This document shows positions 4,860 to 59,335 of a stretch of 64,000 nt of DNA, in pieces. The stretch comes from Nitrospirota bacterium. Its GTDB lineage: Bacteria > Nitrospirota > JACRHJ01. Under the pieces are notes generated by a model. The model saw nothing but the letters and a program-made list of their open reading frames with translations. It was not told where the DNA came from and ran no database searches. The translations under genes and the position numbers were made by a program. Location: positions 89,004 to 153,003 of the forward strand of contig JAJYJM010000001.1 in the NCBI GenBank assembly GCA_021789495.1. Direction: 5' to 3'. Positions within the stretch are counted from its first letter, which is position 1. Each line of letters opens with the position of its first letter.

Positions 4860-4940
4860 GTTCCAACCTCCTATCGTGATTAGATCTGAAAAATCCCACA
4901 GACTATCCCGATAAACCGGAAAATGCGCCTCCTTTCTTTT

Positions 4941-9118: not shown

Positions 9119-9132
9119 ACATGCCTTTCGCC

Positions 9133-9627: not shown

Positions 9628-9630
9628 TTT

Positions 9631-10631: not shown

Positions 10632-10646
10632 CGCTGTACCCCTTGC

Positions 10647-43215: not shown

Positions 43216-43566
43216 CTATTCTTCGGGATGAAGCGGCCCCTGGAGATATACCAGGATTTCTTCGCCCGGATTCGGGAGTCCCGCCACCTTCCACGCCTTC
43301 AAAGGGTCCATTTTAAACGGCCTTGACGCGCAGGTCTTCGGTTTATGAAGGTTGGTGCATACCATCTTGAGTAGCGGGAACGAATGGAATTTGATGTAAT
43401 AGTTTCTGAGGAACTTTATTACTTCCAGGCGGTCTTCCGTAAGCTTGCTGATCCCTTCACGCTTCGCAATCGCTGCCGCCACGGCCTCGTTCCAGGCGTT
43501 GATGCTTGCCAGATAGCCGTTTTTATCCAACTCGACGCTGCCGCCTTCATATTTCAGCGATGGCAT
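43216..43566 (-). CDS. TusE/DsrC-family protein lacking both C-terminal redox cysteines (DsrC paralog)
   Basis: Aligns with the bona fide DsrC at 60156-60491 (NAWNEAVAA/NDWNEDVAG; KVAGLPNPGEE vs KIAGLPKPTGCV), but the Cys(B) position is Trp and the C-terminal GCV is replaced by an extended tail. Confidence 0.6.
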   Translation of the reverse strand: MPSLKYEGGSVELDKNGYLASINAWNEAVAAAIAKREGISKLTEDRLEVIKFLRNYYIKFHSFPLLKMVCTNLHKPKTCASRPFKMDPLKAWKVAGLPNPGEEILVYLQGPLHPEE

Positions 43567-44439: not shown

Positions 44440-45909
44440 CTACCTGCTCCACCACTCGCCGGTCTTTAAGTACTGGTCTATGTTCTTTGCGGCGCTTCTG
44501 CCCGCGCCCATCGCCAGGATAACCGTGGCGGAGCCGGTGACGATGTCGCCGCCCGCGAAGACGCCCTTCTTGGTCGTCCGGCAGGTCTCTTCGTTTTCCA
44601 CTTCGATATAGCCCTTCTTCGTCTGGCCGAGGCCCGGAGTCGTCTGGAACAAAAGCGGATTGGAGCTCGTGCCGATGGACACGACCACGGCGTCCACTTC
44701 CAAAGTGAACTCCGAGCCCGGCTTCGCAACCGGCCTGCGCCTGCCGGAATCGTCCGGAAGGCCGAGCTCCATCTCTATGCACTCAAGGCCCTTGACCCAG
44801 CCCTGCTCGTTTCCAAGAACTTTAACCGGCGCGACAAGGAGCTTGAACTGCACGCCCTCGTGCATCGCGTGCTCGACCTCTTCCTTTCTGGCCGGAAGCT
44901 CGTCCTTCGAGCGCCTGTAGACGATATAGGCGTTGTCCGCGCCGAGCCTCAGCGCCGTGCGGACGGCGTCCATTGCGACGTTGCCGCCGCCGACTACCGC
45001 GACATTTTTGAACCTCTTTATCGGCGTGTCGTATTCCGGGAACCGGAATGCCTTCATGAGGTTCGAGCGCGTGAGGAACTCGTTGGCGGAGTAGACGCCG
45101 TTCAGGTTCTCGCCGGGTATGCCCATGAACCACGGAAGCCCCGCGCCGTTGCAGATATATACTGCGTCGAAGCCGTCCTCGCTCATGAGCTGGTCTATTG
45201 TCTTTATCTTGCCGATGACGTAGTTCAGCTTTATCTCGACGCCCATCTGCTCAAGCACCTTGACCTCGCGCTCGACGATGGCCTTCGGAAGCCTGAACTC
45301 CGGTATGCCGTATACCAGAACGCCGCCGGCCTTGTGCAGGGCCTCGAATACCGTTACCTTGTGGCCCATCACAGTGAGGTCGAACGCGGCTGTCAGGCCG
45401 GACGGCCCCGCGCCGACTATGGCAATCTTTTTGCCGGACGGCGCCGCGGCCTTGGGTATACGGCCTCCGCCGTGCTTCGCCTGAAAATCGGCCACGAACC
45501 GCTCAAGGCGCCCTATGGCCACGGAATCGCCCTTCTTGCTGAGGATGCAGACCTTCTCGCACTGCATCTCCTGCGGGCATACGCGCCCGCATACCGCGGG
45601 CAGGAGGCTCGACTCCTTTATCTTCGCAAGCGCGGAGAGGTAGTCCTTGCTCTGGATGAGGCCGATAAAAGACTTGATGTCGATACCTACCGGGCATCCC
45701 GTGGTGCAGAAAGGCTTCTTGCACTGGAGGCACCGCGACGCCTCAAGGAGCGCCTGCTCCTCCGTATAGCCCAGCGTCACCTCGTCGAAATTTTTCGCCC
45801 GTACGTGCGGGTCCTGCTCCGGCATGGCCTGCCTGGGGACCTTGGGCTTGGCCTGCTTTTGGCCACCTTCCCCCTGGCCCGCCTGACCCTCTTTTTTCTC
45901 TTCGCTCAT
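44440..45909 (-). CDS. GltD-like NAD(P)H oxidoreductase large subunit (NfnB/SudA-type)
   Basis: 489 aa with two N-terminal Cys clusters and FAD and NAD(P) Rossmann motifs (IAIVGAGPSGL; VAVVGGGNVAMD). Confidence 0.8.
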   Translation of the reverse strand: MSEEKKEGQAGQGEGGQKQAKPKVPRQAMPEQDPHVRAKNFDEVTLGYTEEQALLEASRCLQCKKPFCTTGCPVGIDIKSFIGLIQSKDYLSALAKIKESSLLPAVCGRVCPQEMQCEKVCILSKKGDSVAIGRLERFVADFQAKHGGGRIPKAAAPSGKKIAIVGAGPSGLTAAFDLTVMGHKVTVFEALHKAGGVLVYGIPEFRLPKAIVEREVKVLEQMGVEIKLNYVIGKIKTIDQLMSEDGFDAVYICNGAGLPWFMGIPGENLNGVYSANEFLTRSNLMKAFRFPEYDTPIKRFKNVAVVGGGNVAMDAVRTALRLGADNAYIVYRRSKDELPARKEEVEHAMHEGVQFKLLVAPVKVLGNEQGWVKGLECIEMELGLPDDSGRRRPVAKPGSEFTLEVDAVVVSIGTSSNPLLFQTTPGLGQTKKGYIEVENEETCRTTKKGVFAGGDIVTGSATVILAMGAGRSAAKNIDQYLKTGEWWSR

Positions 45910-45928
45910 TAGTTACCGTCCTTATCGC

Positions 45929-46780
45929 TTAAGCCGAATGGCAGAGTTTTTTCCTGCATATGTCAGCCGCCTGCTTCTCCTCGGGCAGATACTGCCTCTG
46001 GCGCGCCATCATCTCGTCGTAGTCCACCTCGTGCCCGTCGAACTCCGGGCCGTCAACGCAGACGAACTTTGTCTTCCCGCCGACGGTTACGCGGCACGCG
46101 CCGCACATCCCGGTGCCGTCCACCATGATGGTGTTGAGGCTGGCGAAAGTCTTTAGTCTGTGCGGCTCCGTAACCTTGCAGACGAACTTCATCATAATCG
46201 GCGGGCCGATTACGACGACAAGGTCGACAGGTATCTTCTCGACCTCTATCATCTGCTTGAGCTCGTCCGTCACGAAGCCTTTCTTCACGTATGAGCCGTC
46301 GTCCGTGGTGATGCGCACCTCGGTCGAAGCCTTTCTCATCAGGTCTTCGTATATCAAAAGGTCCTTCGTCCTGGCACCCAGGATGGATATGACCTTGTTG
46401 CCTGCGTCTTTCATGGCCTTCGCAATCGGATGTACCGGCGCGATGCCCACGCCGCCCCCGATGCAGACGACCGTTCCGAATTTCTCCACGTGCGTCGGCT
46501 TGCCGAGCGGCCCCGCGACATGCATGAGCTTGTCGCCTTCCTTGAACGAGCCGAGGAGCATCGTGGAGGCCCCGACTTCCTGGAACAGGATGTTTATGGT
46601 GCCCTTTTCGGCGTCCTTGTCGGCAATCGTGAGAGGTATCCTCTCGCCCGATTCCCGCGGTATTATGATGACGAACTGCCCGGCCTTGTGTGCCCTGGCT
46701 ATCTCCGGAGCGTCAAGCACGAACTCCGTTATCCTCGGTTCCTGCGCAGACCAAACTGTCTTTTTTAAGATTTCGTACAT
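45929..46780 (-). CDS. ferredoxin-NADP reductase-like small subunit (NfnA/SudB-type, 2Fe-2S)
   Basis: 283 aa. FAD/NAD-binding PDR-like fold plus a C-terminal GTGMCGACRV...C cluster. Confidence 0.75.
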   Translation of the reverse strand: MYEILKKTVWSAQEPRITEFVLDAPEIARAHKAGQFVIIIPRESGERIPLTIADKDAEKGTINILFQEVGASTMLLGSFKEGDKLMHVAGPLGKPTHVEKFGTVVCIGGGVGIAPVHPIAKAMKDAGNKVISILGARTKDLLIYEDLMRKASTEVRITTDDGSYVKKGFVTDELKQMIEVEKIPVDLVVVIGPPIMMKFVCKVTEPHRLKTFASLNTIMVDGTGMCGACRVTVGGKTKFVCVDGPEFDGHEVDYDEMMARQRQYLPEEKQAADICRKKLCHSA

Positions 46781-46792
46781 TCAGCCCCGTCC

Positions 46793-47263
46793 TTAGTTAT
46801 GTTCTATTTCTCTCATAAAATCGTCGTATTTCTCCTCGAAACCCCTCAAATGCCTGCTCTCTTCGTCCGCCAGCAGAAGGAACAATTTCCTGGCCTTCGG
46901 GTCGTCGGACAGCGCGGCGTATTTCTTGTAAGACTCGAACGCCTCTTTCTCCTTGGCCATCGCCGCCCTGAGCACGTCCTGGTAGCTCGCCGTCTCGTCC
47001 AGCCTTACCGAGCCTACGTAATCGGCATATCCGAGCGGTTTCGCCACGCCTTGCGACTTCGGTATCTTTCCGCCTTTTTCGACCTTCTTTTCCAGCTCGT
47101 TCAAGTGGTCGATGTGTTTCTGCTCCTCCTTCGCCAGGTGCTGGAGGTATGCCCGGACGTTATCAACCGAGGACTTTTCAGCGGCCTCAAGGTAGAAACG
47201 TTTTGAGTTCTCCTCGTTTATCCTGGCGTAGTCGATTATCTCTCTCAGCGTGATTTCTTCCAT
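46793..47263 (-). CDS. rubrerythrin/ferritin-like diiron domain protein
   Basis: Repeated E...EExH motifs (AKEEQKH; ADEESRH), 156 aa. Confidence 0.5.
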   Translation of the reverse strand: MEEITLREIIDYARINEENSKRFYLEAAEKSSVDNVRAYLQHLAKEEQKHIDHLNELEKKVEKGGKIPKSQGVAKPLGYADYVGSVRLDETASYQDVLRAAMAKEKEAFESYKKYAALSDDPKARKLFLLLADEESRHLRGFEEKYDDFMREIEHN

Positions 47264-47273
47264 TCAGATCTCC

Positions 47274-47323
47274 TGATAAAAAACAGCCCGGAGGGTCCGC
47301 CTAATGGACAGGCGGCCCTCCGG
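47274..47323 (-). terminator. rho-independent terminator after the dsrL-like gene
   Basis: On the minus strand, CCCGGAGGGCCGCCTG-tccatta-GGCGGACCCTCCGGG is followed by CTGTTTTTTAT. Confidence 0.6.
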
Positions 47324-47340
47324 GTGACGGAACGAATATT

Positions 47341-49020
47341 TTAGAACATGTCTATATAGCCGCAGGGACAGGCTTCCGCGCATTTTTTGCAGCCCTGGCA
47401 CTTGTCCAAGACGAACTCGTAATGCGTGCCGCGCGGAGTATCCTTCGCCTTCTTTTCCACCGCGCCGTCCGAGCAGTACATCCAGCAGTTGTCGCAGTCG
47501 AAGCACAGGCCGCAGCTCATGCAGCGCGAGACCTCTTCCTTGAACTCCGGATCCGAGAGGGCTATCATCGGCTCTTTCGTCATGCTCGCCTTCACCTCGG
47601 ACGCCGGGATGTACTTTGTCGCGTTCCGCTCCTTCTTGACGAAGAAGTCTCGGTACATGTTCTGATACCTGATGACCGTAAGCGGGGCCTCGGCGGGCTT
47701 CTCCTTCTTCTGGATGAAGTCGTCGATGGCCTCGGCGGCCTTCCTGCCAAGGCCGATGGCCTCCGTTACAAGGCCGAGCTGGTTCGTGACGTCGCCGCCC
47801 GCGAAGACTCCGTCCGCCGGGGTCTTGCCGCCTGCGTCCGTGGATATCCAGCCCTTTTCGTTCTTCAGGCTCTCAAGGCCGCCAAACTCCGGCTCCTGGC
47901 TGATGGACGGGCAGACGAACGTCGCCTCCACCACGAACTCGGAACCCGGCACCGGGACAGGCCTGCGCCTGCCGGAGGCGTCCGGCTCGCCAAGCTCCAT
48001 CCTCTGGAGCTTGAGACCTGCCGCCTTGCCGTCCTTTACCACAACCTCGACCGGGGCGGTAAGGTATTCGAACTTGACGCCTTCTTCCTCGGCGGAATGT
48101 ATCTCGTGCTCGATTGCCGGCATTTCGGTCCTGGTCCTGCGGTAGGATAGTGTCACGTCCGCGCCGAGCCTCAGGGCGACTCGCGCGGCGTCGATGGCGC
48201 TGTTTCCGCCGCCGATTACCACAACCTTCCTGCCTATATCGACCTTTTCGCCTTCATTGACCCTATGCAGGAATTCCGCGCCGGTCATGACATTCGGCGC
48301 GTTCTCCCCGGGAACTCCGAGCTTCTTGCCCGCATGGGCGCCGATGCCCATGAAGACGACGCTGTTGGACTTCCGTATCTCGTCGAACGATACGTCTTTC
48401 CCAACCTTCGTCTTCAGCTTGAGCTGCACGCCAAGGTCGAGGATTTTCTTGATCTCGGCGTCGAGCACGTCTTCCGGCAGCCTGTAGGAAGGTATGCCGT
48501 AGCGCAACATGCCGCCGGCCTTTTCAAAGGACTCGTAGATGGTCACGCCGTAGCCGCGCCTGGCAAGCTGATATGCGCAGGAGAGACCCGCCGGACCGGA
48601 GCCTACCACCGCGACTGATTCAGCTTTCTTCTCCGTCGGCGCCGTGAGCGGCAGGTTGTTCTTGATGCCGTAGTCGCCCATGTAGCGCTCGATGTTGTTG
48701 ATGTTCAGCGGCCCTTCGAGGCTTCCCCTGTTGCACTCGCTCTCGCACGGATGCGGACAGACCCTGCCGGTTGTGGCCGGGAGCGGGTTCTTGTCCGTAA
48801 GCATGTACCAGGCCTCTTTCATGGACTGGTCGAAGGTCCTGCCGTACATCTCCGACTGGTTGACGTGCATCACGTAGCCGCGGATGTCAACGCCTGACGG
48901 GCACTTGAACGTGCACGGCGGCGTTTTCGGCTGGTATTTGGGCCTCAGCGCGGAAGCCTGCGTCGCGGAGCCGGCTTTTATGCTGTAGTCCTTCTTTTTC
49001 TTCTTAACTACAATGGCCAT
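47341..49020 (-). CDS. DsrL-like NAD(P)H oxidoreductase (GltD-like core plus C-terminal 2x[4Fe-4S] ferredoxin domain)
   Basis: 559 aa. N-terminal Cys clusters (CTFKCPSG; CPHPCESEC), FAD/NAD Rossmann motifs, C-terminal CMSCGLCFDCDNC...CQGCKKCAEACP. Sits immediately downstream of dsrABD. The DsrL assignment rests on architecture and context only. Confidence 0.55.
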   Translation of the reverse strand: MAIVVKKKKKDYSIKAGSATQASALRPKYQPKTPPCTFKCPSGVDIRGYVMHVNQSEMYGRTFDQSMKEAWYMLTDKNPLPATTGRVCPHPCESECNRGSLEGPLNINNIERYMGDYGIKNNLPLTAPTEKKAESVAVVGSGPAGLSCAYQLARRGYGVTIYESFEKAGGMLRYGIPSYRLPEDVLDAEIKKILDLGVQLKLKTKVGKDVSFDEIRKSNSVVFMGIGAHAGKKLGVPGENAPNVMTGAEFLHRVNEGEKVDIGRKVVVIGGGNSAIDAARVALRLGADVTLSYRRTRTEMPAIEHEIHSAEEEGVKFEYLTAPVEVVVKDGKAAGLKLQRMELGEPDASGRRRPVPVPGSEFVVEATFVCPSISQEPEFGGLESLKNEKGWISTDAGGKTPADGVFAGGDVTNQLGLVTEAIGLGRKAAEAIDDFIQKKEKPAEAPLTVIRYQNMYRDFFVKKERNATKYIPASEVKASMTKEPMIALSDPEFKEEVSRCMSCGLCFDCDNCWMYCSDGAVEKKAKDTPRGTHYEFVLDKCQGCKKCAEACPCGYIDMF

Positions 49021-49034
49021 TGATTTTTCTCCGT

Positions 49035-49280
49035 TTATGCGTTCGCGCTTCCCTCTACGTGCGGAAGCTCGATCGTAGTGCCGCCGAAATAGCCATATAC
49101 GAGCTTCTCCTCGTCGATCAGCTCCTTAAGGGCCTCCTTCACGTCTTTCTTGGAGCACGCGGCCTCGCCGAAGTGCTCTATGACTTCCTGGGTAAGGTGG
49201 GGAACCTTCACCTGCTTTTTGCCGGCATAGGACTCCACCTTGTGGAACAAGTAGTCTTTTATCTCTTCTAAGGACGCCAT
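49035..49280 (-). CDS. dsrD: DsrD (dissimilatory sulfite reductase D, winged-helix)
   Basis: 81 aa, Lys/Glu-rich, directly downstream of dsrB. YGYFGGTTIEL is typical of the DsrD C-terminus. Confidence 0.7.
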   Translation of the reverse strand: MASLEEIKDYLFHKVESYAGKKQVKVPHLTQEVIEHFGEAACSKKDVKEALKELIDEEKLVYGYFGGTTIELPHVEGSANA

Positions 49281-49291
49281 TTTAGCACCTC

Positions 49292-50368
49292 TTAAAATTT
49301 AACGTGTGTAGAGGAATTGTACGTGCTGGACGCCAGGGTGTAGTCGTCGATATGGTACTTGGTGAATTCCAGGCCCGTCTTCTCGAAGAACTTCTGCCAG
49401 CCTATCCTGCCTATCCACTCGCCGACCCTCTCGTACTTCTTCGCGTCTTTCGCGTAGGTCTCGACGATGTTCTTGACCGCGCTCGTGACTTCCGGCCAGC
49501 GCGGCGGGTTGTTCGGGAGATAGGGTATCGCGAGCTTGGAGAACATCGGAGCGGTGCGGGAGTTGGAGACCTTGCCGCCAACCCATATCGAGATACCGTC
49601 GTTCAGCGGGTTCGCTATCGGCATCGCCGGGCAGACGGTGTAGCAGTTGCCGCAGTACATGCAGAGGTCCTCCACCACCTCGACCGTCTTCTTGCCGGCT
49701 ACCACCTTCGGGCGTATTGCTGCCTTCGGGCAGGAGGCGACGGTTGACGGGATTTCGCACATGTTGGCGAGCTTGTCATTATCTATCGTCGGCGGAGTCC
49801 TGTGGATGCCGAGGATGGCGATGTCGGAGCAGTGGACCGCGCCGCACATGTTGAGGCAGCATGCGACCGCTATCCTCAGGTGCGCGGGAAGCGTCATGGA
49901 CGTGAAGTAGTCGATAAGCTCGTCCATGGTGGCCTTCACCACTCCGGATGCGTCCGTCGCGGAGCTGTGGCAGTGAACCCAGCCCTGGGTATGGACGATG
50001 TTTGAGATGGAGTTACCCGTGCCGCCGACCGGCTGCCCCATCTTGGCGAGCTCGTCGATAATCGGCTGGATGTTGGCTTCCTTGTCCGTCATGAACTCGA
50101 CGTTGTTGCGGCTCGTGAACCTGAGATACCCGTCGCAGTACTTGTCGGCAAGGTTGCAGTAATCGCGTATCTTCTCGATGCTTACAAGCCTTGATGACGC
50201 CGCGCGGATGGTATACAGCTTGTCGCCGGTCTCCGAGACGTGCATCAGAACGCCCGGCTTGACTTTCTCGTGATACTTCCACTTGCCGTAGTTCTTCTTC
50301 ACCATAGGGTGGAGCATCTGTTCGTAATGGGGTGGCCCTATGTCTGTCTTTCTCTTCGGAGCTGCCAT
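49292..50368 (-). CDS. dsrB: dissimilatory sulfite reductase beta subunit
   Basis: Closely matches Desulfovibrio DsrB (DIGPPHYEQ...[10 protein letters not shown]...[11 protein letters not shown]...[13 protein letters not shown]). Confidence 0.9.
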
Positions 50369-50470: not shown

Positions 50471-51649
50471 TTATTCTTCGTCGAAATACTCTTCGTAGAA
50501 GATATACGGGTTGGACCTCGGCTCCTTTATCATGGCGGGAGTAGGCTCAAGACCGACTTCCTCGACAAAGTTGCCCTTGCCGATACGGACGATCATCTCG
50601 CCTATGCGCTCCCTGTTCTCGCCGTGCTCATCCCAGAACTCCCATATGCGGCGGATAAGGTCCTTGAACTCCTCGTACGGCGGCTCCATTTTTATAAATG
50701 GAACCAGCACGGAAGAGAGCAGGGCGCCCTGGACAATAGGGGCCTTTGCGCCGAGAAGTATCATCGCGCCCTTGTCCTTGCCGGGGCGAAGAGCCTTCGG
50801 CATGACGTTTATGCAATGCATGCAGCGGTTGCAGTTCTTGTTGTCAATGGAGAGCTTGGAGCCGTCCCATGACATGCAGCCGGTCGGGCATTTCGCGACG
50901 ACGTCATTCGCTATATCCACCTTGCCGCCCTTGGCGTATTCCGTGATTGCGGCGTTGTCCTGCTGGATATCGTCCCTCCATGTGCCGATAATGGAGCAGT
51001 CGGAGCGAGCTATCGAGGCGACGCAGTCGTTCGGGCAGCCCGACATCTTGAACTTGAACTTGTACGGGAACGCCGGCCTGTGAAGCTCGTCCTGGTACTC
51101 GTTCGTCAGGTCGTAGCATAAGTTCATGGTGTCGTAGCAGGCGAACTCGCAACGGGCCATGCCGTTGCAGCAGGACGGGGTGCGGACGTCGGAGCCGGAG
51201 CCGCCAAGGTCCCAGCCGTGCTCGGAGAGGTCTGTGAATATGTCTTCGAGGTGGTCGGTAGTGGTGCCGAGCATGATGAAGTCGCCGGTCGAGCCGTGCA
51301 GGTTCGTAAGACCGGAGCCGTGCTTCTCCCAGAGGTCGCAGAGATAGCGGAGCGCGCCGGTGTTGTAGAACCATGCGGATGGCTGGTTCACGCGGACGGT
51401 GTGGAAGTGGGAGACGTTCGGGAACTTCTCCGGCGAATCGGAATAGCGGCCTATGATGCCGCCGCCGTAACCGCGGACGCCGACTATGCCGCCGTGTTTC
51501 CAGTGCGTCTTCTTGTCCTTGTAGGACATCTCAAGGAGACCCAGGAGGTCTTTGCACATGGCGTTCTTCGCGGCCATCCTCTTGATGTCCTTGATGAAGC
51601 TCGGCCATGGGCCGGTTTCAAGCTGGTCAATCATTGGGGTATCTGACAT
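50471..51649 (-). CDS. dsrA: dissimilatory sulfite reductase alpha subunit
   Basis: [17 protein letters not shown]...[11 protein letters not shown]...CEFACYD...[14 protein letters not shown]...[10 protein letters not shown]. 392 aa, shorter than the typical DsrA. Confidence 0.9.
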
Positions 51650-51719: not shown

Positions 51720-52385
51720 TTATTCGTCGTTTTTCCGAATTTTTTCGAGCGCGTCGCCCGCGGCGCGCGCTACGCTAATATTTGTTAAGGCATCTCCCTC
51801 GTAAAGACTAATAACGGCTTCGTCCCCTGTAAGTTTCCCGAGGCCCTCTTTAGCCGCCGCGAAACGCATCCTGCCGAGCGCCCATGCGGAGAAGCCCCTT
51901 ATCACCGGCTCCGGGTCTTCAAGGAACTTCACGAGCGCCGGTCCCATCTCCGAAACCAGCGCAGGCTCGTCTTCCGCAAGCGCCCCGATGGCCCAGACGG
52001 AACCCGCGAGTATCGGCGTATTCCTGTTCGCGGGAAGGGAAACTTCCTCGTCGTCGGAGAGGTGGAGAACCGCTCGTATGGCGTCCCGCGCCATGCCCGG
52101 ATTATTTCTGTATATCTCCGCGATGGCCTGCGCGGAACACCAGCCTACGGTGCTCGATTCCTCGTTGAGGAACCATAGAAGCCGTCTCACCGCCGGCGCG
52201 AGGTCGGTACTGCCCTCAGCCGCAACCAGCCCCAGCAGCGTCACGGCCCTCCATCTGAGAAGCTCCTCCTCGGAATATAAAAGACCGAGCAGAATCCGCA
52301 GGTTTCCATGTCTTTTTTTAACGAGGTCCATCGCTTCCTGATACTTCCGGGCAAGCAGTAGTTCCGACAGGGTTTCCCTGTCCAT
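51720..52385 (-). CDS. HEAT/PBS-lyase-like repeat protein
   Basis: 221 aa of repeated helical LLxxLxDxxxxVRxxAxxALG-type units. Confidence 0.5.
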   Translation of the reverse strand: MDRETLSELLLARKYQEAMDLVKKRHGNLRILLGLLYSEEELLRWRAVTLLGLVAAEGSTDLAPAVRRLLWFLNEESSTVGWCSAQAIAEIYRNNPGMARDAIRAVLHLSDDEEVSLPANRNTPILAGSVWAIGALAEDEPALVSEMGPALVKFLEDPEPVIRGFSAWALGRMRFAAAKEGLGKLTGDEAVISLYEGDALTNISVARAAGDALEKIRKNDE

Positions 52386-52390
52386 GTTTA

Positions 52391-52687
52391 TTAAAGCCAG
52401 GTCATCGGCTTGTGCTGCTCGACAAGATCGACAAAATCGGCGTAGTCGATTACTTTCACGCCGGGGGTCAGGCTGCCCGCGAGGCCCCTCGCGGAAATGT
52501 CCGCGCCGAGCGCGTAGACCGGGTGGTCCTTAAGCGCGCCCTGGACAAGGCCCTCCACCGAGCCTCCAACGGCGGCGCCGAGCACGGCGTCTTCAATAAG
52601 CAGTATCGGGGCGTTCTTCTGCGCCACCCTGATGCAGCTCTCCAGGCTGCTTTTCATGTACGGAGATTTGTTTACTATGTGAAGCAC
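52391..52687 (-). CDS. dsrH: DsrH/TusB family sulfur relay protein
   Basis: 98 aa. MLHIVNKSPY..., VYAL..D..ARGL..., IDYADFVDL align well with E. coli TusB. Confidence 0.7.
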   Translation of the reverse strand: MLHIVNKSPYMKSSLESCIRVAQKNAPILLIEDAVLGAAVGGSVEGLVQGALKDHPVYALGADISARGLAGSLTPGVKVIDYADFVDLVEQHKPMTWL

Positions 52688-52703
52688 CTTGAAAGCCTCC
52701 TGT

Positions 52704-53060
52704 TTAAAAGGGCAGTATCACGTCCTGCTCTTCCATTATCTTGCCGATGCCCGCCGAATCCATCACCTCGACCGGTATTGCGAAATCATCCACCTTCAGG
52801 CCGCGTTTTTCCATGGATTCCTTGTCCACGTATATTTTCTCGCAGCCGTAGTCCTCAAGCACAGGCAGGGTCTGGAGAAATCCCTTTATGCCGAGTGCCG
52901 AGGTATCCTGCCCTTTTTTGAGGGAGAAAACGGCGTCGTCCATGTAGACGGCGGAGAGCTCGTTTTCGTATGCGCCGAAGATGAGGACGACTTCCAGCCC
53001 TTCCCAGGCGTATATCGTCCCGTGCGGGGCGTTCCTGTTCACGAACATTATCTTTGCCAC
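52704..53060 (-). CDS. dsrF: DsrF/TusC family sulfur relay protein
   Basis: 118 aa. NRNAPHGT...EGL, DDAVF, DVILPF match the TusC pattern. Confidence 0.7.
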   Translation of the reverse strand: MAKIMFVNRNAPHGTIYAWEGLEVVLIFGAYENELSAVYMDDAVFSLKKGQDTSALGIKGFLQTLPVLEDYGCEKIYVDKESMEKRGLKVDDFAIPVEVMDSAGIGKIMEEQDVILPF

Positions 53061-53080
53061 TTTTTAAATCTCCTTTCCTC

Positions 53081-53437
53081 TTAGTCTCCGAAGGTGACTA
53101 CGCGCTCCGCCTCGGTGCATATCTCGCTAAGCTGGCCCAGGCCGGATATTCTTGTATTATCGACTATAAGTTCCGGCTTCATCCCGCGCCTCTTGGCCGC
53201 CGCCACGCAGACGACTATGTCAACGCCCTTGGCCCCGAGCTCCGACCACCGCCTTGCGATATGCCTGTCGTCCTGCGGCGGCTCCATGTGCTTGGCGACG
53301 TTCGTAACCGCGTCGTCATAGAGAAAGACGCCCTGGATGGTATGACCCTTGGCCATTGCCGCTTCGATAAACTTGTAGGCGGTATCGGAGGCCTCGTGGT
53401 TATACGGGCCTTCCTGTATCATTACGCCTATTTTCAT
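53081..53437 (-). CDS. dsrE: DsrE/TusD family sulfur relay protein (conserved active-site Cys)
   Basis: 118 aa. VFLYDDAV...CVAAAKRRG matches the TusD/DsrE Cys motif. Strong AGGAGG RBS. Confidence 0.75.
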   Translation of the reverse strand: MKIGVMIQEGPYNHEASDTAYKFIEAAMAKGHTIQGVFLYDDAVTNVAKHMEPPQDDRHIARRWSELGAKGVDIVVCVAAAKRRGMKPELIVDNTRISGLGQLSEICTEAERVVTFGD

Positions 53438-53561: not shown

Positions 53562-55340
53562 TTAACTTTCCGTCGCGCCTATCTTGCCGGCCTTCTGAAG
53601 GGCCTTGCTGAATATGTCGGCGGCCCTGGTCTTGTCGTATTTCGCGCAGGCGGAGGCAATCTTTGCAAGCAGGTCGGCTGAAGCGGCATTGTCGCTCACG
53701 GAAGAGGCGGACTTAACCGCCATGTCCCAGACCATCGGCGAGCGGTAATCGCCCTTGGCCGAGAAATCCGCCGCAATCTCGGAGAGGTAGCCAGCCTTCA
53801 TGTCGTCGTCGCCTTCCAGGCCCGCCGCGTAAGAGACGAACTGGTTCGGGTCCAGCCTGCAAAGCGCGACGGCTGTCTTCCATTGAAGCGCGTCGCTTTT
53901 AGCCGCGGCAGCCGCGGACGCGGCCCTTTTGTAGAGCTTTATGGCGGCGGCAGGGTCTGTCTGCTCCTTGAGCTTTGCGGCGGCGTAATATGCGCGCGCC
54001 TGCTCGTAAACCGCTTCGTCATTTGCGAACCTCGGCACGTCAATTTTGTCGAATTCTTTTTTGAATGCCTTGTCTCCGTCCTTTGAAGCCGCAGCCGCGA
54101 GCGACGCGTATATCGCGTCCTTTATGGCCGGATATTCCTCGTCTCCGGCCAGTTTCCCGGCCTTGTTGGGGTCGGAACCGACAAGCGAATCCGCCGTAAG
54201 CTCAAGCGCCTTAGCCCGGTCGTACGGATCCGATATCGCCTGGGCGGTCTCGATAACGCCGGACATGTCTGCGGCATTACAGCTTCCGCCCGCGGTGGCG
54301 GCCTTCATCATGGCTGCGAACTTGGCGTCGTTATGCTCTATCTTCGAGGCATATGCGTCCGCATCGTCTGGATTCGCTCCGGAAAGGGCCATTGCGACGT
54401 CGCTCATCGCATAAGACCTGGCGTACGGCTGCTTTATCGATGAGGCGATTTCTTCCGCCCTTGAGAACATGGTCCGGGACTTTGCGGCGTCGGAATCCTT
54501 CAGCGCGAGGGCGGCATTGGCGAGCGCCCTGGCGGAATACGCCATCAGGTCCCCTTTTTCCTTTGCGAGGACTGCCGCCTTTACTTCGGGAGGAGTCGAG
54601 TCGGTGATAAGGTCGCTCGTGGGTTCCATGTTAAGCACGGCCTCTGCCGCATCGCCCGCGGCGGCAAACGCGGAGGCCGCGTCGCCGGAGCCGTTCGCCT
54701 TCGCAGTCTTGCCCATTTCCATGTATGCCCAGGCCCTTATCCTTGGGTCGGAGATCTTCGCGGCGGCGTCCATGCCTGCCTTGAAATCAAGCTCCGCGAG
54801 CGCTGCGGAAACTCCGCGAAGGTCGAGGTCCCGGTATTTCGGGTCCGGTATGGACTCTGCGTCCTGCGCCGCCTGGTTAAGGATTCCAATCGCCTTCGCC
54901 TTGTCGAGCTTCGCTATGCCTTCGGCAATGGAGCGTATAACCCAGACGCGGGTGGAGTCGTTTGTAATCCTTTCAATCAGTGGGTCGATGGCCTCGTGGT
55001 CCTTAGGCCCCCACTCGCTCGACATCCGGCGCAACCCCGCCGCATATGTCTGGTTGGACTGCGCCCGAACCTGCGTCGCAAGTTTCAGGGCAGAGTCGAG
55101 GGTATCGGACGCGCCGGAGACTCCCTGCTCCGCCATCGCCATCCCAAGCTTTCCGAGCTCGAACGCTTTGAGGTTCATGTTGTCCAGGGTGTCCGCAGTC
55201 TTGCTCGCCTGAGAGACGGCTGCGGCCACCACCTTGGGGTCTGCCGAGTTGCCCTCCTTTTGTCCGTTATATTCGGAACAGGAGGAAAGGAAGGCCAGCA
55301 GCGTGACAGCACATGTTATTGCGAATATTCTTTTGAGCAT
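53562..55340 (-). CDS. Ala-rich lipoprotein of unknown function
   Basis: Lipobox LAFLSSCSE. 592 aa of Ala/Asp/Lys-rich helical repeats with no catalytic motif. Confidence 0.5.
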   Translation of the reverse strand: MLKRIFAITCAVTLLAFLSSCSEYNGQKEGNSADPKVVAAAVSQASKTADTLDNMNLKAFELGKLGMAMAEQGVSGASDTLDSALKLATQVRAQSNQTYAAGLRRMSSEWGPKDHEAIDPLIERITNDSTRVWVIRSIAEGIAKLDKAKAIGILNQAAQDAESIPDPKYRDLDLRGVSAALAELDFKAGMDAAAKISDPRIRAWAYMEMGKTAKANGSGDAASAFAAAGDAAEAVLNMEPTSDLITDSTPPEVKAAVLAKEKGDLMAYSARALANAALALKDSDAAKSRTMFSRAEEIASSIKQPYARSYAMSDVAMALSGANPDDADAYASKIEHNDAKFAAMMKAATAGGSCNAADMSGVIETAQAISDPYDRAKALELTADSLVGSDPNKAGKLAGDEEYPAIKDAIYASLAAAASKDGDKAFKKEFDKIDVPRFANDEAVYEQARAYYAAAKLKEQTDPAAAIKLYKRAASAAAAAKSDALQWKTAVALCRLDPNQFVSYAAGLEGDDDMKAGYLSEIAADFSAKGDYRSPMVWDMAVKSASSVSDNAASADLLAKIASACAKYDKTRAADIFSKALQKAGKIGATES

Positions 55341-55351: not shown

Positions 55352-55939
55352 TTATTCCTTTACGGTTTTCTTAAGCCCCAGGAAGAAAAGCAGGGAGACA
55401 ATCATCACCACGAGCAGGCCAAGCCCTATCACCTTTTCCAGCTTGTAGTCGTCGCGGAGCTTGTTTATCTTCTCGTAGATTTCTCCCATACCCTTTTTAA
55501 TTTTCAGGTTCGGTCCCGCGAAGGAATCTATGGAGTCCACGTCCTTCGTTCTCAGGTCTGCATACTTTATGTTGTATTTGACCAGGTCCGCCCGCATATA
55601 TTCCGGGTATCTCATGGTCTGCTCTTCGAGGTCGCTCAGGAACTGGTTGTATTTCAGGAGCCTGCTTTCCGTGAAATACTGCTCCTTCTTTATCTCGAAA
55701 AGCCCGGGGCAGAGCGTGCTCTTCTGCTCCTGATAGATGCTCCTGTCCCATTTCATCAGGCTCCCGAATGAGGCAATTTCGCCCGCGGTATGGCATTCGG
55801 CGCAGTAGTTGTCCTTGGCCGCCGCGTAAGCCGGGATAAAAAGCACGATGAGAACCGCTGCTATAAAAATTCCTCTTACTCTCCCTGTCACGGTATACTC
55901 CTTTTTATTAAGAGTAATGTCCCACGATTGTAAGGCCAA
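55352..55939 (-). CDS. membrane-anchored monoheme c-type cytochrome
   Basis: One CAECH heme-binding site, N-terminal and C-terminal hydrophobic helices. The start overlaps the upstream gene by about 30 nt and may lie downstream. Confidence 0.55.
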   Translation of the reverse strand: MALQSWDITLNKKEYTVTGRVRGIFIAAVLIVLFIPAYAAAKDNYCAECHTAGEIASFGSLMKWDRSIYQEQKSTLCPGLFEIKKEQYFTESRLLKYNQFLSDLEEQTMRYPEYMRADLVKYNIKYADLRTKDVDSIDSFAGPNLKIKKGMGEIYEKINKLRDDYKLEKVIGLGLLVVMIVSLLFFLGLKKTVKE

Positions 55940-56339
55940 CGAAAATTAAAACGCCGCCTATAATGGCAGCCTTGCCGAGCATTGACCGATTCTTCCAGCC
56001 CTTCGCCGGCCCCCTGTCAAGGAACGGCAGCAGGAAAAGCCCCGTTATCGCGAGCACCTGCACCCCCATGCCTATCAGTTCCGCCACGTCTCCGAAGATG
56101 GTGGTCGGGAACATCTTCAGCGTCTGGTACGCCGCAAGGAAATACCACTCCGGCTTCACGCCGAGCGGGGTGTTGGTGGTGTCAGCAGGCACCTCCGGCG
56201 GCAGGAAAAGCTTTGGAATAAAAAAGGCAATCAGGAAGAAGATGCCGATTATAATGGAGGCTATTATCCCCTTGTCTATTACGTCGTTCGGCCAGAAAGG
56301 TTCAAGCTCGCCTTTCCAGTTGTCCTTGTTATATTTCAT
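55908..56339 (-). CDS. cytochrome b C-terminal domain / b6f subunit IV-like protein
   Basis: PEWYFL motif, three transmembrane helices, 143 aa. Confidence 0.75.
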   Translation of the reverse strand: MKYNKDNWKGELEPFWPNDVIDKGIIASIIIGIFFLIAFFIPKLFLPPEVPADTTNTPLGVKPEWYFLAAYQTLKMFPTTIFGDVAELIGMGVQVLAITGLFLLPFLDRGPAKGWKNRSMLGKAAIIGGVLIFVGLTIVGHYS

Positions 56340-56354
56340 TCTCCATTCCTCTCT

Positions 56355-57020
56355 TTATAACTGCTCTTGAATGCCCGACCTTCTAATCATCATAAAGTGG
56401 AAGGCCATGAGAAGCGACATGACTACCGGAAGCGCCAGGTGCAGGGCGAAGAACCTGCCGAGCGTGGCGCCGGAAACCGCGTCCGCGCCGCGTATCACCT
56501 TCATCATTATCGGCCCGACGACAGGCACGACGGAGAACGAGGTCGTGAGAACCGTGACCGCCCAGTAGGAGAGCTGCGTCCAGGGAAGCAGATAGCCGGA
56601 GATTCCCATCATCATCGTGAGCATAAGAAGGGCGAAGCCTGACAGCCAGTGGAACTCCCTGGGGGCCTTGTACGCCCCGGTCATTATCACTTTCAGCATG
56701 TGTATCATCACGAGGAGTATCATGACGTTGGCGCCTATGGCGTGCAGACGTCTGAAGAGCCAGCCGAAATAGACGCCGTTGTCGATGAATACGACGCTGG
56801 AGAAGGCCTCCTTCGGCGAGGGCGTGTAGTAGATGAGGAGAAACGTGCCCGTGAGCACCTGGATTACAAAGAGTATGAGGGACATCCCGCCGAAGCAGCC
56901 GAAGAACTCGTACCACTTTTTGATAGTCGGGGCCTTCTTGGAAAACACCTCGTCGTCCAGCAGCTCGGAGATCCCCGTGCGGGAATCTATCCATTCAATC
57001 ACCTTGCTCATCCTATGCAC
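56355..57020 (-). CDS. cytochrome b6-like (cytochrome b N-terminal domain)
   Basis: 221 aa, four transmembrane helices, conserved His pairs (RRLHAIGANVMILLVMIHM). Confidence 0.8.
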   Translation of the reverse strand: MHRMSKVIEWIDSRTGISELLDDEVFSKKAPTIKKWYEFFGCFGGMSLILFVIQVLTGTFLLIYYTPSPKEAFSSVVFIDNGVYFGWLFRRLHAIGANVMILLVMIHMLKVIMTGAYKAPREFHWLSGFALLMLTMMMGISGYLLPWTQLSYWAVTVLTTSFSVVPVVGPIMMKVIRGADAVSGATLGRFFALHLALPVVMSLLMAFHFMMIRRSGIQEQL

Positions 57021-57498
57021 CTCCGACTATCAATTTGTCGCCGGCAATCTTGTAATCGAGCTTCTCGAGAGGCGCGGGAGGAGGACCGCCTTTGTTTATC
57101 CCGTGCTCGTCGTACCAGCCGTCATGGCAGGGGCACTTGAAAATCTTCTTGTCCGGTTCCCATTTTACCGTGCAGCCCAGATGGGTGCACTTCAGGGATA
57201 TAACCTCCAGTCCCGTCTTCCTGTTGAAGACCATGAAGGAATATCCGGCGTAAACGCCCTTCGCGGAACTTCCGACGGGTATATCCCCCAGGTTCATTAT
57301 CGCGGGTTCAGGCTTGCCTCTCTGGACGGGCGTGAAGGACGCCAGAAGCGGAACACCGACAAGCCCCGCGCCCAGCGCGCCTACGCATCCGGCGAAAGCG
57401 CCAAGGAAAGCCCGCCTTCCGGCCATGAATTTTCCACCGTGGTGCTCTTCGGGCACCGGGGCGGCGCCTTCTTTAGCGGTGTTTTTATTTTCTTCCAT
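57013..57498 (-). CDS. Rieske [2Fe-2S] iron-sulfur protein
   Basis: CTHLGC...CPCHDGW Rieske boxes. N-terminal Tat-like RR (AGRRAFLGA). Confidence 0.8.
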   Translation of the reverse strand: MEENKNTAKEGAAPVPEEHHGGKFMAGRRAFLGAFAGCVGALGAGLVGVPLLASFTPVQRGKPEPAIMNLGDIPVGSSAKGVYAGYSFMVFNRKTGLEVISLKCTHLGCTVKWEPDKKIFKCPCHDGWYDEHGINKGGPPPAPLEKLDYKIAGDKLIVGGA

Positions 57499-57514
57499 GA
57501 TTTGAGATCCCCCT

Positions 57515-57820
57515 TTATTCGTATCCTGAGACCCTTTTGACGCCTACATAATCATGGCAATTATTGCACGAGGTGTTCGCGTCGTGGCAGAGCATGCACT
57601 CGTGCTTGTTGTAGTCGCCTCTTTTAAGGATGTCCATGTGGTGGTCTTTCCAGTAATCGACCGGCTGATGGTATTCCGGGGAGAGGATTCCCGGAGGAAG
57701 CTTGAGCGCAAGCGGCCCCGTGCCCTTGAGCTCCGGCTTGGCGACTCGCTCGTTGGAACAGCCGACGGCGAAAACGGCCAGAAGGGATATAAACAGCAGG
57801 ACAAGGATTGGTTTCCTCAT
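57515..57820 (-). CDS. small diheme c-type cytochrome lipoprotein
   Basis: Lipobox AVGCS and two CxxCH motifs (CMLCH, CNNCH), 101 aa. Confidence 0.65.
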   Translation of the reverse strand: MRKPILVLLFISLLAVFAVGCSNERVAKPELKGTGPLALKLPPGILSPEYHQPVDYWKDHHMDILKRGDYNKHECMLCHDANTSCNNCHDYVGVKRVSGYE

Positions 57821-59323
57821 TTATATCCCCTCCTTCCCGCCGAGAACAATCGCGCGGCTGACGAGCTGGTGCACTCCGCCGACTTCCTCCATCTCATACC
57901 CGTAATACGGGAAGACCTTCGTGAACTGCGCCTTGCATATTGCGCAGATGAGCGCGAAGAAGTTTGCTCCGTGGCTGTCCTTGACGGCTTTATACGCCTG
58001 CATTCTCGGCATAACGCCTTTTATGCGAAGGTCGATTATCTCGTCGGCGAGCAGTCCTCCTCCGGCTCCGCAGCAGAATGTCTTTTCGCGGATGGTGTCC
58101 GGGTGCATGTCCACGAACTTGTTGCACGTGGCCCTGATTATCGCCCTCGGTATCTCGAACTGGCCTCCGGGACTGTTGCCCATCCTCGATGCGCGGGCCA
58201 CGTTGCAGGAGTCGTGGAATGTGACGACGAAATCGTCGTTGGCCGTCTTGTCGAGTTTCAGCGCCCCCCTGTTTATAAGGTCGTACGTAAACTCGCAGAT
58301 ATGCTGCGGCGCGGGATATTTCGGGTCGAGGGAATCGAACGGCCCGATGAGGGTATTCCAGAAGCTGTAGGCCACGCGCCAGGCATGGCCGCATTCGCCG
58401 TGTATAAGCCTCTTCGGCTTAAGTTCGTTTATTGCCACCTTTATCCTGCCGGCAATCTTGCGCATATGCTCGTAGTTTCCGTTGAACATGCCGAAATTGC
58501 CGGCCTCGGAGGCGTATGACGAGAGCGTCCATGAAATCCCCGCCTGGTGAAACACCTTCGCGTATCCGGCGAGCGACTCGACATGCGGCGTGGCGAAGAA
58601 ATCAGCCGAAGGGGTTATGAGCAGGACATCCGCTCCCTTTACGTCCATCGGGAACTTCACCGGGACGCCTGTCTGCTCCTTGACGTCTTCTTCCATGAAG
58701 TCGAGCGTGCTGCGGATGGCCGGGCCGGGCATTCCGAGGTTGTTGCCTATCGTTATAGCCTTGTTGATGGTCTGAAGAGGATATTTCGCGCCAAGACCAA
58801 CGGTGTCCATTATCTCCCTGGCGGCCATGGTTATCTCTGCGGTGTCTATGCCGTAAGGGCAGAAGAGCGAACAGCGCCTGCACTCCGTGCACTGGTAAAA
58901 ATAGGTATACCATTCTTCCATGACTTCTCTGGTTAGATCCTCCGCCTCGGCCAGCTTGCCCAATACCTTTCCGGCCGTCGTGAAGTAGCGGCGATAGACC
59001 TTCCGCAGGAGCTCAGCCCTCGCCACCGGCATATTGCGCGGGTCCTTTGTGCCGAGGTAGAAGTGGCACTTGTCGGTACATGCGCCGCACTTGACGCAGA
59101 TGTCCATGAAGACCTTGAGGGAGCGGTATTTCTTGAGAAGCTCGGCGAACTTGGCGACCGCCTTCTCTTTCCAGTCCGGGACAAGCTCCGTGGGAAAACC
59201 CAGGTCGGTCATGTCCTTCGCCGGCGCGTTATGGCTTTTTACAGCCGCCGCGGCGTCTTCTTTCAGGCCGGGTATCGCTATCTCACCGGTCAGTTCCGGG
59301 ACCTCAAACTTTACTTTTGCCAA
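57821..59323 (-). CDS. dsrK: DsrK (HdrD-like FeS/CCG-domain subunit)
   Basis: Two ferredoxin motifs (CVKCGACTDKC; CTECRRCSLFCP) and CCG-domain motifs (FCCGAGGG). Immediately downstream of dsrM. Confidence 0.75.
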   Translation of the reverse strand: MAKVKFEVPELTGEIAIPGLKEDAAAAVKSHNAPAKDMTDLGFPTELVPDWKEKAVAKFAELLKKYRSLKVFMDICVKCGACTDKCHFYLGTKDPRNMPVARAELLRKVYRRYFTTAGKVLGKLAEAEDLTREVMEEWYTYFYQCTECRRCSLFCPYGIDTAEITMAAREIMDTVGLGAKYPLQTINKAITIGNNLGMPGPAIRSTLDFMEEDVKEQTGVPVKFPMDVKGADVLLITPSADFFATPHVESLAGYAKVFHQAGISWTLSSYASEAGNFGMFNGNYEHMRKIAGRIKVAINELKPKRLIHGECGHAWRVAYSFWNTLIGPFDSLDPKYPAPQHICEFTYDLINRGALKLDKTANDDFVVTFHDSCNVARASRMGNSPGGQFEIPRAIIRATCNKFVDMHPDTIREKTFCCGAGGGLLADEIIDLRIKGVMPRMQAYKAVKDSHGANFFALICAICKAQFTKVFPYYGYEMEEVGGVHQLVSRAIVLGGKEGI

Positions 59324-59335
59324 TTTGAAATCTCC

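Follow-up and report, generated by a model that had tools for sequence, protein, structure and literature searches.

A probable DsrL-2 iron-sulfur flavoprotein encoded behind reductive-type dsrAB in an uncultured Nitrospirota lineage

The 559-amino-acid (aa) protein encoded just downstream of the dissimilatory sulfite reductase genes dsrAB in a 64,000-nucleotide (nt) stretch of DNA from a Nitrospirota bacterium (GenBank assembly GCA_021789495.1, contig JAJYJM010000001.1, positions 89,004 to 153,003 of the forward strand; hereafter the window, to which all coordinates refer) is very probably a DsrL-2 iron-sulfur flavoprotein. It would belong to the subtype that accompanies reductive-type DsrAB and DsrD (DsrL-2C), working from NADPH through FAD and a chain of [4Fe-4S] clusters to DsrAB. 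What carries this reading is family membership, a set of diagnostic residues, gene order and its conservation, and the predicted fold, all of them observed on the protein or its locus. Published work already covers this kind of protein, its subtype and biochemical role as well as the dsrABDL-2 order in related groundwater bacteria, and the gene described here adds a recognised but ordinary example.

Family membership, architecture and diagnostic residues

The gene, the parts of its product and the hairpin that follows it are located as follows.

47341..49020, minus strand: probable dsrL-2 coding sequence (NF009410/PRK12771; 72-94% identity to homologs from Nitrospirota metagenome-assembled genomes; tree placement)
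48943..48954, minus strand: S23-A-L-R26, with the 'NfnB C39' (Ser/Thr) and 'NfnB C42' (Arg) columns of Loeffler et al. (R26 invariant, S23 at least 90%)
48658..48933, minus strand: N-terminal domain for two [4Fe-4S] clusters, residues 30-121 (Pfam Fer4_20, E = 1.8e-15)
47752..48618, minus strand: FAD Rossmann fold with embedded NAD(P)H Rossmann fold, residues 135-423 (Pfam Pyr_redox_2, Pyr_redox, NAD_binding_8)
48136..48144, minus strand: YRR motif, Y293-R294-R295, for the 2'-phosphate of NADP(H) (invariant)
47536..47703, minus strand: linker, about residues 440-495, in its short form of about 56 aa (no Pfam domain)
47344..47535, minus strand: C-terminal ferredoxin domain (Pfam Fer4_21 and Fer4_7 from residue 506, 506-558)
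47278..47324, minus strand: GC-rich hairpin with T6, intrinsic-terminator-like, 16 nt past the dsrL stop (RNA folding)

The open reading frame (ORF) is complete, running from an ATG to a TAA over 559 codons and the stop, and is separated by a 14-nt spacer (49021-49034) from a small ORF in the dsrD position that ends at 49035; GGAGA precedes the ATG. A first-pass annotation of the window had reported this length and gap, which were reproduced, and had described GltD-like Cys clusters, FAD/NAD Rossmann folds and a C-terminal two-cluster ferredoxin domain, for which the Pfam models Fer4_20, Pyr_redox_2 and Fer4_21 were all found in place. Among NCBIfam models the protein passes NF009410/PRK12771 alone, over its full length and with 601 bits (cut-off 516). 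It stays far below the cut-offs of TIGR01316 for NfnB/GltA (324.9 bits, cut-off 471.75), of the GltD models TIGR01317 and TIGR01318 (211 and 274 bits, cut-offs 448 and 483) and of the AegA and YgfK models, and it fails the YgfT model too. Its closest relatives are generically named proteins from Nitrospirota metagenome-assembled genomes (72-94% identity), followed by Candidatus Desantisbacteria (~60%) and by a wide range of proteins (54-60%) that belong to Acidobacteriota, Actinomycetota and Chloroflexota, among others. Most homologs carry only the NCBI/JGI name 'NAD(P)-binding protein', two relatives bear the JGI label 'dissimilatory sulfite reductase flavoprotein subunit', and the identical protein also occurs on several ENA, NCBI and Logan contigs; the window itself stems from a metagenome assembly.

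DsrL has been defined by a dsrAB-bearing source, a characteristic domain order and the absence of adjacent pyruvate:ferredoxin oxidoreductase (PFOR) genes, and in all DsrL proteins the position of NfnB C39 is Ser or Thr, while the Cys that ligate the clusters of the C-terminal ferredoxin domain are strictly conserved (Loeffler et al. 2020, PMC7596348). In the window, dsrA and dsrB lie upstream on the same strand, with 14 nt and one small ORF in between; the domain order is that of DsrL, with a linker of ~56 aa vs the 'about 100 aa' generally quoted; and the flanks consist of the dsrD-position ORF and a rubrerythrin-like gene, with no gene for a pyruvate or ketoisovalerate:ferredoxin oxidoreductase beside the protein. 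In an alignment of the protein with 27 homologs (28 sequences), Ser stands at 'C39' in at least 90% (S23) and the eight cluster Cys of the ferredoxin domain are invariant. The short DsrL-type architecture proposed by the first-pass annotation is supported by the full domain order and the short linker.

Within DsrL, the subtypes are told apart by a few residues. YRR is found in every DsrL-2, two extensions of ~30 aa mark DsrL-1A, and the position of NfnB C42 is Cys in DsrL-1 and wherever DsrL-2 accompanies oxidative rDsrA, Arg where it accompanies reductive DsrA, and Leu in a pair of Lambdaproteobacteria (Loeffler et al. 2020, PMC7596348); DsrL-2 beside reductive DsrAB and DsrD was later termed DsrL-2C (Diao et al. 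2023, PMC10591310). The protein has Y293-R294-R295, R26 is invariant in the alignment, and its combination of Ser, Arg and YRR is, at the level of sequence, that of a DsrL-2 from a reductive-type organism. The R26 column was found to be Cys in the rDsrAB-linked DsrL-2 of loci L037, L044, L022, L026 and L033, and Leu in the Lambdaproteobacteria/SAR324 proteins L027 and L029, so that the states of the S23 and R26 columns agree exactly with the exceptions for 'C39/C42' given by Loeffler et al. 2020. The marks of DsrL-1A are lacking: residues 30-438 span NfnB 41-461 with no large insertion, and YRR and Arg are present.

The remaining ligand candidates of the N-terminal domain, C36, C40, C88, C92, C96 and E111, are all six invariant in the alignment and correspond to C47, C51, C90, C96, C100 and E117 of NfnB. 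The nucleotide-binding motifs are GSGPAG at 140-145 and GGGNSA at 270-275. In the ferredoxin domain the invariant cluster Cys are C506, C509, C512 and C516 and C541, C544, C547 and C551, the tail reading C541-x2-C-x2-C-x3-C551-P-C553. A check of the C-terminal ferredoxin spacing, suggested by the first-pass annotation as a test for DsrL, gave a divided answer: the Cys ligands are conserved, but the same spacing occurs equally in paralogs away from dsr genes and is not specific to DsrL. Both this spacing and YRR, which NfnB and GltD possess as well, were dropped as DsrL-specific marks. Eleven C-terminal Cys are invariant in the alignment, and most dsr-linked homologs keep the full set. Three of them, the C500-x2-C503 pair and C553, exceed the eight needed for two [4Fe-4S] clusters and stand outside this explanation; the Pfam ferredoxin models begin at C506, and paralogs away from dsr genes carry most of the three.

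The predicted fold is consistent with the DsrL domain order. An AlphaFold2 (AF2) model built from the alignment has a mean predicted local distance difference test (pLDDT) value of 85.5 and a predicted template modelling score of 0.84, the linker being confidently modelled (pLDDT 76-93). In Foldseek searches of the PDB the best matches over the whole length are 9BOV_A and 9N5U_A (NfnABC) and 8OH5_C (StnABC), with query-normalised template modelling scores (TMq) of 0.78-0.81. The core matches NfnI-L, NfnB, Xfn, GltD and DPD, with target-normalised scores (TMt) of ~0.8 to the NfnB and NfnI-L chains. No solved DsrL structure was found among the PDB chains searched by sequence and with Foldseek. 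The body plan of a flavin, two clusters, a connecting stretch and further clusters is common to the protein and to the NfnABC/StnABC subunits.

Phylogeny and gene neighbourhood

A neighbour-joining (NJ) tree was computed from 408 core columns with 100 bootstraps, E. coli GltD serving as the root. In this tree, T. maritima NfnB, P. furiosus NfnI-L, the NfnB encoded in the window and that of locus L001 form one clade with 100% support, and the protein itself falls into a separate Nitrospirota clade, also at 100%, nested among dsrAB-adjacent homologs. Clustering with NfnB or with glutamate synthase small subunits, which the first-pass annotation had named as the outcome that would overturn its proposal, was not observed, GltD having been used as the outgroup. 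The dsr-linked proteins together with a sister pair that is not beside dsr genes (L034/L035) are supported at 99%, the dsr-linked proteins alone at 53%. The protein clusters with proteins that Loeffler et al. list as DsrL-2 or DsrL (L037, L044, L027), and the local shape of the tree is that of the published DsrL tree (Loeffler et al. 2020, PMC7596348), where, within DsrL-2, a Nitrospirae CG clade has Desantisbacteria as its sister group. A true NfnB is also encoded in the window and therefore serves as an internal comparison: it aligns to T. maritima NfnB (4YLF_B) with 546.6 bits, the protein with 301.9 bits. Judged from its sequence and tree position, the protein is a DsrL and neither NfnB, from which score and clade set it apart, nor GltD, whose partner gene gltB is absent from the window.

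The three ORFs upstream of the gene complete the dsr context.

49035..49280, minus strand: ORF of 81 aa in the dsrD position, a divergent winged-helix protein (locus position, AF2)
49292..50368, minus strand: dsrB (TIGR02066, 529.7 bits)
50471..51649, minus strand: dsrA, reductive bacterial type (TIGR02064, 586 bits)

That the gene directly follows dsrABD, as first proposed, stands for dsrA and dsrB, which the TIGR models identify unambiguously, but is weak for dsrD, as the Pfam DsrD model stays below its cut-off. The window DsrA scores 538-563 bits against the DsrA chains of A. fulgidus and Desulfovibrio in the PDB. In an NJ tree it groups with dsrD-linked DsrA (68% support), sharing 64-71% identity with this group and 47-52% with the other, which holds L037 and L044, both classed as oxidative by Loeffler et al. 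2020 (PMC7596348). The R26 column, the placement of DsrA in the dsrD-linked set and a dsrD-position ORF, although divergent, are the marks that point to DsrL-2C.

Across genomes, a locus scan took one genome per species and mapped the proteins of the window onto 80 loci among the matches listed. Nearly all stand-alone homologs that reach 48% identity or more are encoded 0.1-2.4 kb downstream of dsrB, mostly with a small ORF in the dsrD position between dsrB and the homolog and often with dsrN, dsrC and dsrMK nearby; the exceptions include contig ends and Lambdaproteobacteria. Homologs below ~47% identity that lack an S-x-x-R-P motif are found away from dsr genes, and many are long fusion proteins. 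The adjacency to dsrAB(D) recurs in at least 10 phylum-level lineages, and the 15-kb gene order of the window is repeated in three Nitrospirota relatives (L085-87). Three genomes used by Loeffler et al. were listed in the scan (L027 Lambdaproteobacteria, L037 RBG_19FT_COMBO_42_15 and L044 Desulforhopalus IMCC35007); among the matches listed none exceeds 57% identity, and there is no locus of A. vinosum, Chlorobaculum or Desulfurella. A tblastn search of plasmids for DsrL-1 returned only GltA, PreT, YgfK and generic paralogs, all at 41% identity or less.

These observations also weigh against the weakest alternative, that a generic NADPH oxidoreductase of the GltD/NfnB family, such as the 2-oxoacid:ferredoxin oxidoreductase-associated type excluded from DsrL by Loeffler et al., simply sits beside the dsr genes: PRK12771 does include stand-alone non-dsr paralogs with the same C-terminal Cys spacing (L034/35, L046-48, L051-54) and annotators mostly write 'NAD(P)-binding protein', but these paralogs branch outside the dsr-linked clade and lack the motif S-x-x-R-P...K-x-P-P-C, no PFOR genes flank the gene, and the recurrent dsrAB(D) adjacency, hence the gene neighbourhood, strongly disfavours the idea, which we consider barely credible.

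Proposed electron flow and its direction

In the proposed mechanism, NADPH would dock in the embedded Rossmann domain, where YRR 293-295 would touch its 2'-phosphate, and a hydride would pass to FAD. Single electrons would then leave the flavin via the two N-terminal [4Fe-4S] clusters, the proximal one probably held by C40, C88, C92 and E111 and the distal one by C36 and C96 together with the non-Cys positions S23 and R26, and would next reach the two clusters of the C-terminal ferredoxin domain. This domain would feed DsrAB for the conversion of sulfite to the DsrC-bound trisulfide. Desulfurella amilsii DsrL-2 and A. vinosum rDsrABL are the models from which we infer that the protein is specific for NADPH, that it touches DsrAB and which way the electrons run. 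The D. amilsii enzyme is active with NADP(H) only, a property tied to YRR (Loeffler et al. 2020, PMC7596348), which leads us to expect NADPH rather than NADH. That NAD(P)H could be a direct electron partner of DsrAB, the suggestion with which the first-pass annotation closed, had been proposed for DsrABL-2 in the same study from the D. amilsii enzyme, and DsrL-2 is given the same role of electron donor to DsrAB by Ferreira et al. 2022.

Several points weigh against this assignment. The protein in the dsrD position is divergent, scoring 15.2 bits (E = 0.027) against Pfam DsrD (PF08679, cut-off 24.2). The trees are NJ only, and nodes inside DsrL-2 are weak (26-58%). YRR, being present in NfnB and GltD too, separates DsrL-2 from DsrL-1 only, and placement relative to DsrL-1A, DsrL-1B and the D. 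amilsii protein rests on diagnostic features and the published tree. MAFFT by itself leaves S23 and R26 unaligned with NfnB C39 and C42, for which reason the columns were assigned via the exceptions named by Loeffler et al., and S23 and R26 as cluster ligands are a proposal of these authors, hence putative. Cofactor specificity, cluster content and DsrAB binding would likewise be carried over by homology. Finally, dsrEFH and tusA in the cluster suit an oxidative or disproportionating role as well.

This last point bears on the direction of electron flow, which is the least certain part of the mechanism. DsrL-2 might run in reverse or both ways, passing electrons from DsrAB to NADP+ during sulfur oxidation or disproportionation while DsrEFH and TusA supply DsrC. 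With dsrEFH directly upstream of dsrAB and tusA downstream, the gene order fits such a role; DsrL-2 occurs in proven sulfur oxidisers, and direction is unreadable from sequence (Loeffler et al. 2020, PMC7596348); the co-occurrence of DsrAB, DsrD and DsrL-2 has been related to disproportionation (Ferreira et al. 2022). We nevertheless regard reversal as unlikely, if well short of negligible. The window DsrA falls into the reductive group, a dsrD-position ORF is present whereas dsrD is absent from organisms with oxidative rDsrAB (Ferreira et al. 2022), the 'C42' column is Arg vs Cys in every rDsrAB-linked DsrL-2 checked, and DsrL-2C beside reductive DsrAB is considered a marker of reduction (Diao et al. 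2023, PMC10591310).

An NfnB-like bifurcation or confurcation, in which FAD would split NADPH electrons between DsrAB (high potential) and a ferredoxin-like acceptor via low-potential clusters, possibly together with NfnAB, appears improbable. The core is indeed NfnB-like, with target-normalised template modelling scores of ~0.8 to 4YLF_B and 5JCA_L, separate pairs of clusters lie on both sides of the flavin, and nfnAB is a conserved neighbour; yet no NfnA-like partner is found right beside dsrL, the nearby nfnA being paired with its own nfnB, and no DsrL has been reported to bifurcate. Over the whole length, moreover, the structures that match best are subunits of the Bfu-type complexes NfnABC and StnABC. 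These subunits reportedly serve as plain NADPH entry modules, with bifurcation located elsewhere in the complex. The preferred reading remains a DsrL-2C that would deliver NADPH electrons to DsrAB.

Hairpin and transcript

The gene would be co-transcribed with dsrABD, given the 14-nt spacer and its own ribosome-binding site, and the transcript would be ended or attenuated at the hairpin and U-run at 47278-47324. The 16-bp-stem hairpin seen in the first-pass annotation was confirmed by RNA folding: the stem at 47287-47324 has 16 pairs (9 + 7 around a 1-nt bulge) and a 5-nt loop and is followed by TTTTTT at 47278-47283, with a free energy of about -37 kcal/mol (z = -4.6 vs dinucleotide shuffles, 0 of 200 shuffles being as good). 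A simple consensus terminator scan did not list it, probably because of the bulge, and an Rfam scan of the window gave no RNA family in the spacer, its sole match being a tRNA at 231-303. L086 and L087 have similarly strong GC-rich hairpins of other sequence at the same place, with no U-run, and the distant L001 has none. The position is conserved within the lineage, and a role as attenuator or in stabilising the 3' end is as conceivable as full termination. The U-run ends 14 nt before the ATG of the rubrerythrin-like gene, and these 14 nt hold AGGAG. With no space left there for a promoter, transcription of the rubrerythrin-like gene and nfnAB would depend on read-through or on a promoter within dsrL.

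On the other side of the gene, dsrD and dsrL are only 14 nt apart in the window vs 175-265 nt in relatives at 72-84% identity, and in L085 (6826-7000) this spacer contains a GC-rich hairpin with a T-run after it. An internal attenuator separating dsrABD from dsrL seems to have disappeared in the lineage of the window.

Other genes of the cluster

The whole cluster lies on the minus strand. Its upstream end consists of a cobB-type amidase in the dsrN position, dsrC, dsrM and dsrK, followed in order by a Rieske/cytochrome set, a 592-aa lipoprotein, dsrE, dsrF, dsrH, a HEAT protein, dsrA, dsrB, the 81-aa ORF, the dsrL-2 candidate and the hairpin. Downstream come the rubrerythrin-like gene, nfnA, nfnB, tusA, a CBS protein, a Cys-less DsrC-like protein, cobA and an OsmC gene. 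The further genes with assigned functions upstream of dsrAB are the following.

51720..52385, minus strand: DVU0298-family HEAT-repeat protein (NF045662, 149.6 bits; same position in L001, L085-87 and L089)
52391..53437, minus strand: dsrH, dsrF and dsrE (TIGR03011, TIGR03010, TIGR03012, all over cut-off)
55352-57820, minus strand: a 101-aa protein with two CxxCH, a Rieske protein, a cytochrome b6-like protein, a subunit-IV-like membrane protein and a 195-aa protein with one CxxCH
57821-59323, minus strand: dsrK (dsrC-dsrM-dsrK block 57821..60533)
59336-60067, minus strand: dsrM (same block)
60156-60533, minus strand: canonical dsrC, ending ...PKPTGCV (QACKIAGLPKPTGCV), next to dsrMK

Homologs of the 81-aa ORF (34-49% identity) sit between dsrB and dsrL in ~30 loci, and the family keeps its position, its size and a Y-x-Y-x-G-G motif. 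Two close homologs have a precomputed PF08679 match, but a PDB search with a profile of 16 homologs, run up to E <= 10, did not reach any DsrD chain, and the AF2 model (pLDDT 83) is a winged helix to which Foldseek gives generic winged-helix matches only. A conserved Y-G-Y-F-G-G-T-T stretch in this ORF may take the place of the Y-W-S-S-G-S-T-T of Desulfovibrio DsrD.

The dsrEFH genes stand directly before the reductive-type dsrAB with the HEAT protein alone between them, a layout also seen in L001, L085-87 and L089; DsrEFH together with reductive DsrAB has been described as a rare exception (Diao et al. 2023, PMC10591310). A second gene of the DsrC family (43216-43566, minus strand), downstream of nfnAB, tusA and the CBS gene, lacks both conserved C-terminal Cys, ends in AGLPNPGEEILVYLQGPLHPEE and is kept in L085-87. 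The Rieske/cytochrome b-type set (55352-57820) lies between dsrMK and dsrEFH; none of dsrJOP was identified in this stretch, and the set may be an alternative membrane link of this Dsr system. The 592-aa Ala-rich predicted lipoprotein (53562-55340, minus strand) has no Pfam or NCBIfam match and is found directly upstream of dsrE in L085-87 as well (590-612 aa). Far from the dsr genes, a lone tRNA gene (231-303, plus strand) lies beside a lipid-type cluster (315-13171, minus strand) comprising a B12-binding radical SAM protein that falls just short of the cut-off of the 'ladder lipid' model TIGR04072 (335 vs 360 bits), two FabF-like synthases, phytoene-desaturase-like proteins and an acyltransferase.

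A possible NADPH supply line

Immediately past the hairpin comes a block of three genes (44440..47263).

46793-47263, minus strand: rubrerythrin-like gene
45929-46780, minus strand: nfnA
44440-45909, minus strand: nfnB, 489 aa (TIGR01316, 576.4 bits)

The same block follows dsrL in L085-87 and in a second, distant lineage (L001 and L089, 57-60% identity), and is absent from the Desantisbacteria locus L088 and from L090. In the lineage of the window and in L001/L089, the order dsrEFH, HEAT protein, dsrABD and dsrL is always followed by the rubrerythrin-like gene and nfnAB. One tentative explanation, which we would not rate above a plausible conjecture, is that DsrL-2 is half of a two-enzyme module in which NfnAB, an electron-bifurcating transhydrogenase, makes NADPH from NADH and reduced ferredoxin, DsrL-2 passes the electrons to DsrAB, and the hairpin sets the ratio of expression. 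If true, this would amount to a soluble, genetically hard-wired path from catabolic reductant to sulfite reductase. No paper describing a gene-order link between nfnAB and dsrL was found in open-access literature text. Two features of the window may go slightly beyond the papers found, the rubrerythrin-like/nfnAB block after dsrL and dsrEFH right before reductive-type dsrAB; the divergence of the 'DsrD' may be a further point on which less has been published. The rubrerythrin-like/nfnAB neighbourhood, as a possible NADPH supply line, is the sole lead perhaps worth following.

Significance

What donates electrons to DsrAB in living sulfite and sulfate reducers was for a long time uncertain. For organisms with DsrL-2 the literature gives this protein as the answer, NADPH reaching DsrAB via it. 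The window offers a further clear example, drawn from a Nitrospirota-like lineage that is uncultured, and leaves our knowledge of DsrL unchanged. It mixes 'reductive' markers (the type of DsrAB, the dsrD-position ORF and an Arg-type DsrL-2) with 'oxidative' ones (DsrEFH and TusA), and thereby illustrates why the direction of sulfur metabolism is unreadable from marker genes alone.

Comparison with known systems

The nearest published relatives appear to be those of 'Nitrospirae bacterium CG2_30_53_67', whose dsrABDL-2 order (OIP62037) is known (Loeffler et al. 2020, PMC7596348) and whose clade (with PIW85965, PIV84583 and PIS37301) is sister to Candidatus Desantisbacteria DsrL-2 (Loeffler et al. 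2020, PMC7596348; Tan et al. 2019). The window shares with it the order dsrA-dsrB-dsrD-dsrL-2, a reductive-type DsrA and the pattern of Nitrospirota followed by Desantisbacteria at ~60%. In CG2_30_53_67, however, dsrEFH lies elsewhere, in a dsrTMKJOPCEFH cluster, whereas in the window dsrEFH is upstream of dsrAB and only dsrMK was identified. None of the four accessions was found in the ten close-homolog clusters, so that the link to this clade rests on taxonomy and tree shape.

Desulfurella amilsii DsrL-2 (OSS41879), the only biochemically characterised DsrL-2, is of the same family, with the same domain order and YRR, and is abundant during thiosulfate reduction. It shows NADP(H)-only activity and was proposed as donor to reductive DsrAB (Loeffler et al. 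2020, PMC7596348), but it belongs to a different branch of the published DsrL-2 tree, and its operon encodes a DsrE-like protein and a one-Cys DsrC. A. vinosum DsrL-1A (AAG13082) has the same overall architecture and partners (r)DsrAB both physically and functionally; it differs in an insertion of ~32 aa in the NAD(P) domain, a linker ~30 aa longer, the lack of YRR, a preference for NAD(H), a Cys at 'C42' and its confinement to oxidative rDsrAB.

Outside DsrL, NfnB (T. maritima 4YLF_B; P. furiosus NfnI-L 5JCA_L) matches residues 30-438 in fold (TMt 0.80) and at 40-41% identity; the proximal-cluster ligands, the Glu among them, are kept, and YRR is present. It is, however, only ~470 aa long, has no linker or C-terminal ferredoxin domain, binds its distal cluster by Cys alone and works with NfnA. 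GltD (E. coli; A. brasilense 2VDC_G) resembles the protein in its N-terminal cluster domain and FAD/NADPH core, but has no C-terminal ferredoxin domain, and no gltB lies near the gene. The best PDB matches over nearly the whole length, running on past the flavoprotein core, are NADPH-binding subunits of Bfu-type transhydrogenases, NfnA of NfnABC (9BOV_A, 9N5U_A) and StnC (8OH5_C), with 398 bits and TMq 0.78-0.81. These subunits of 950-1180 aa, by contrast, are fused to further Fe-S and formate-dehydrogenase-like domains within three-subunit complexes, share 33-35% identity with the protein and have no dsr linkage.

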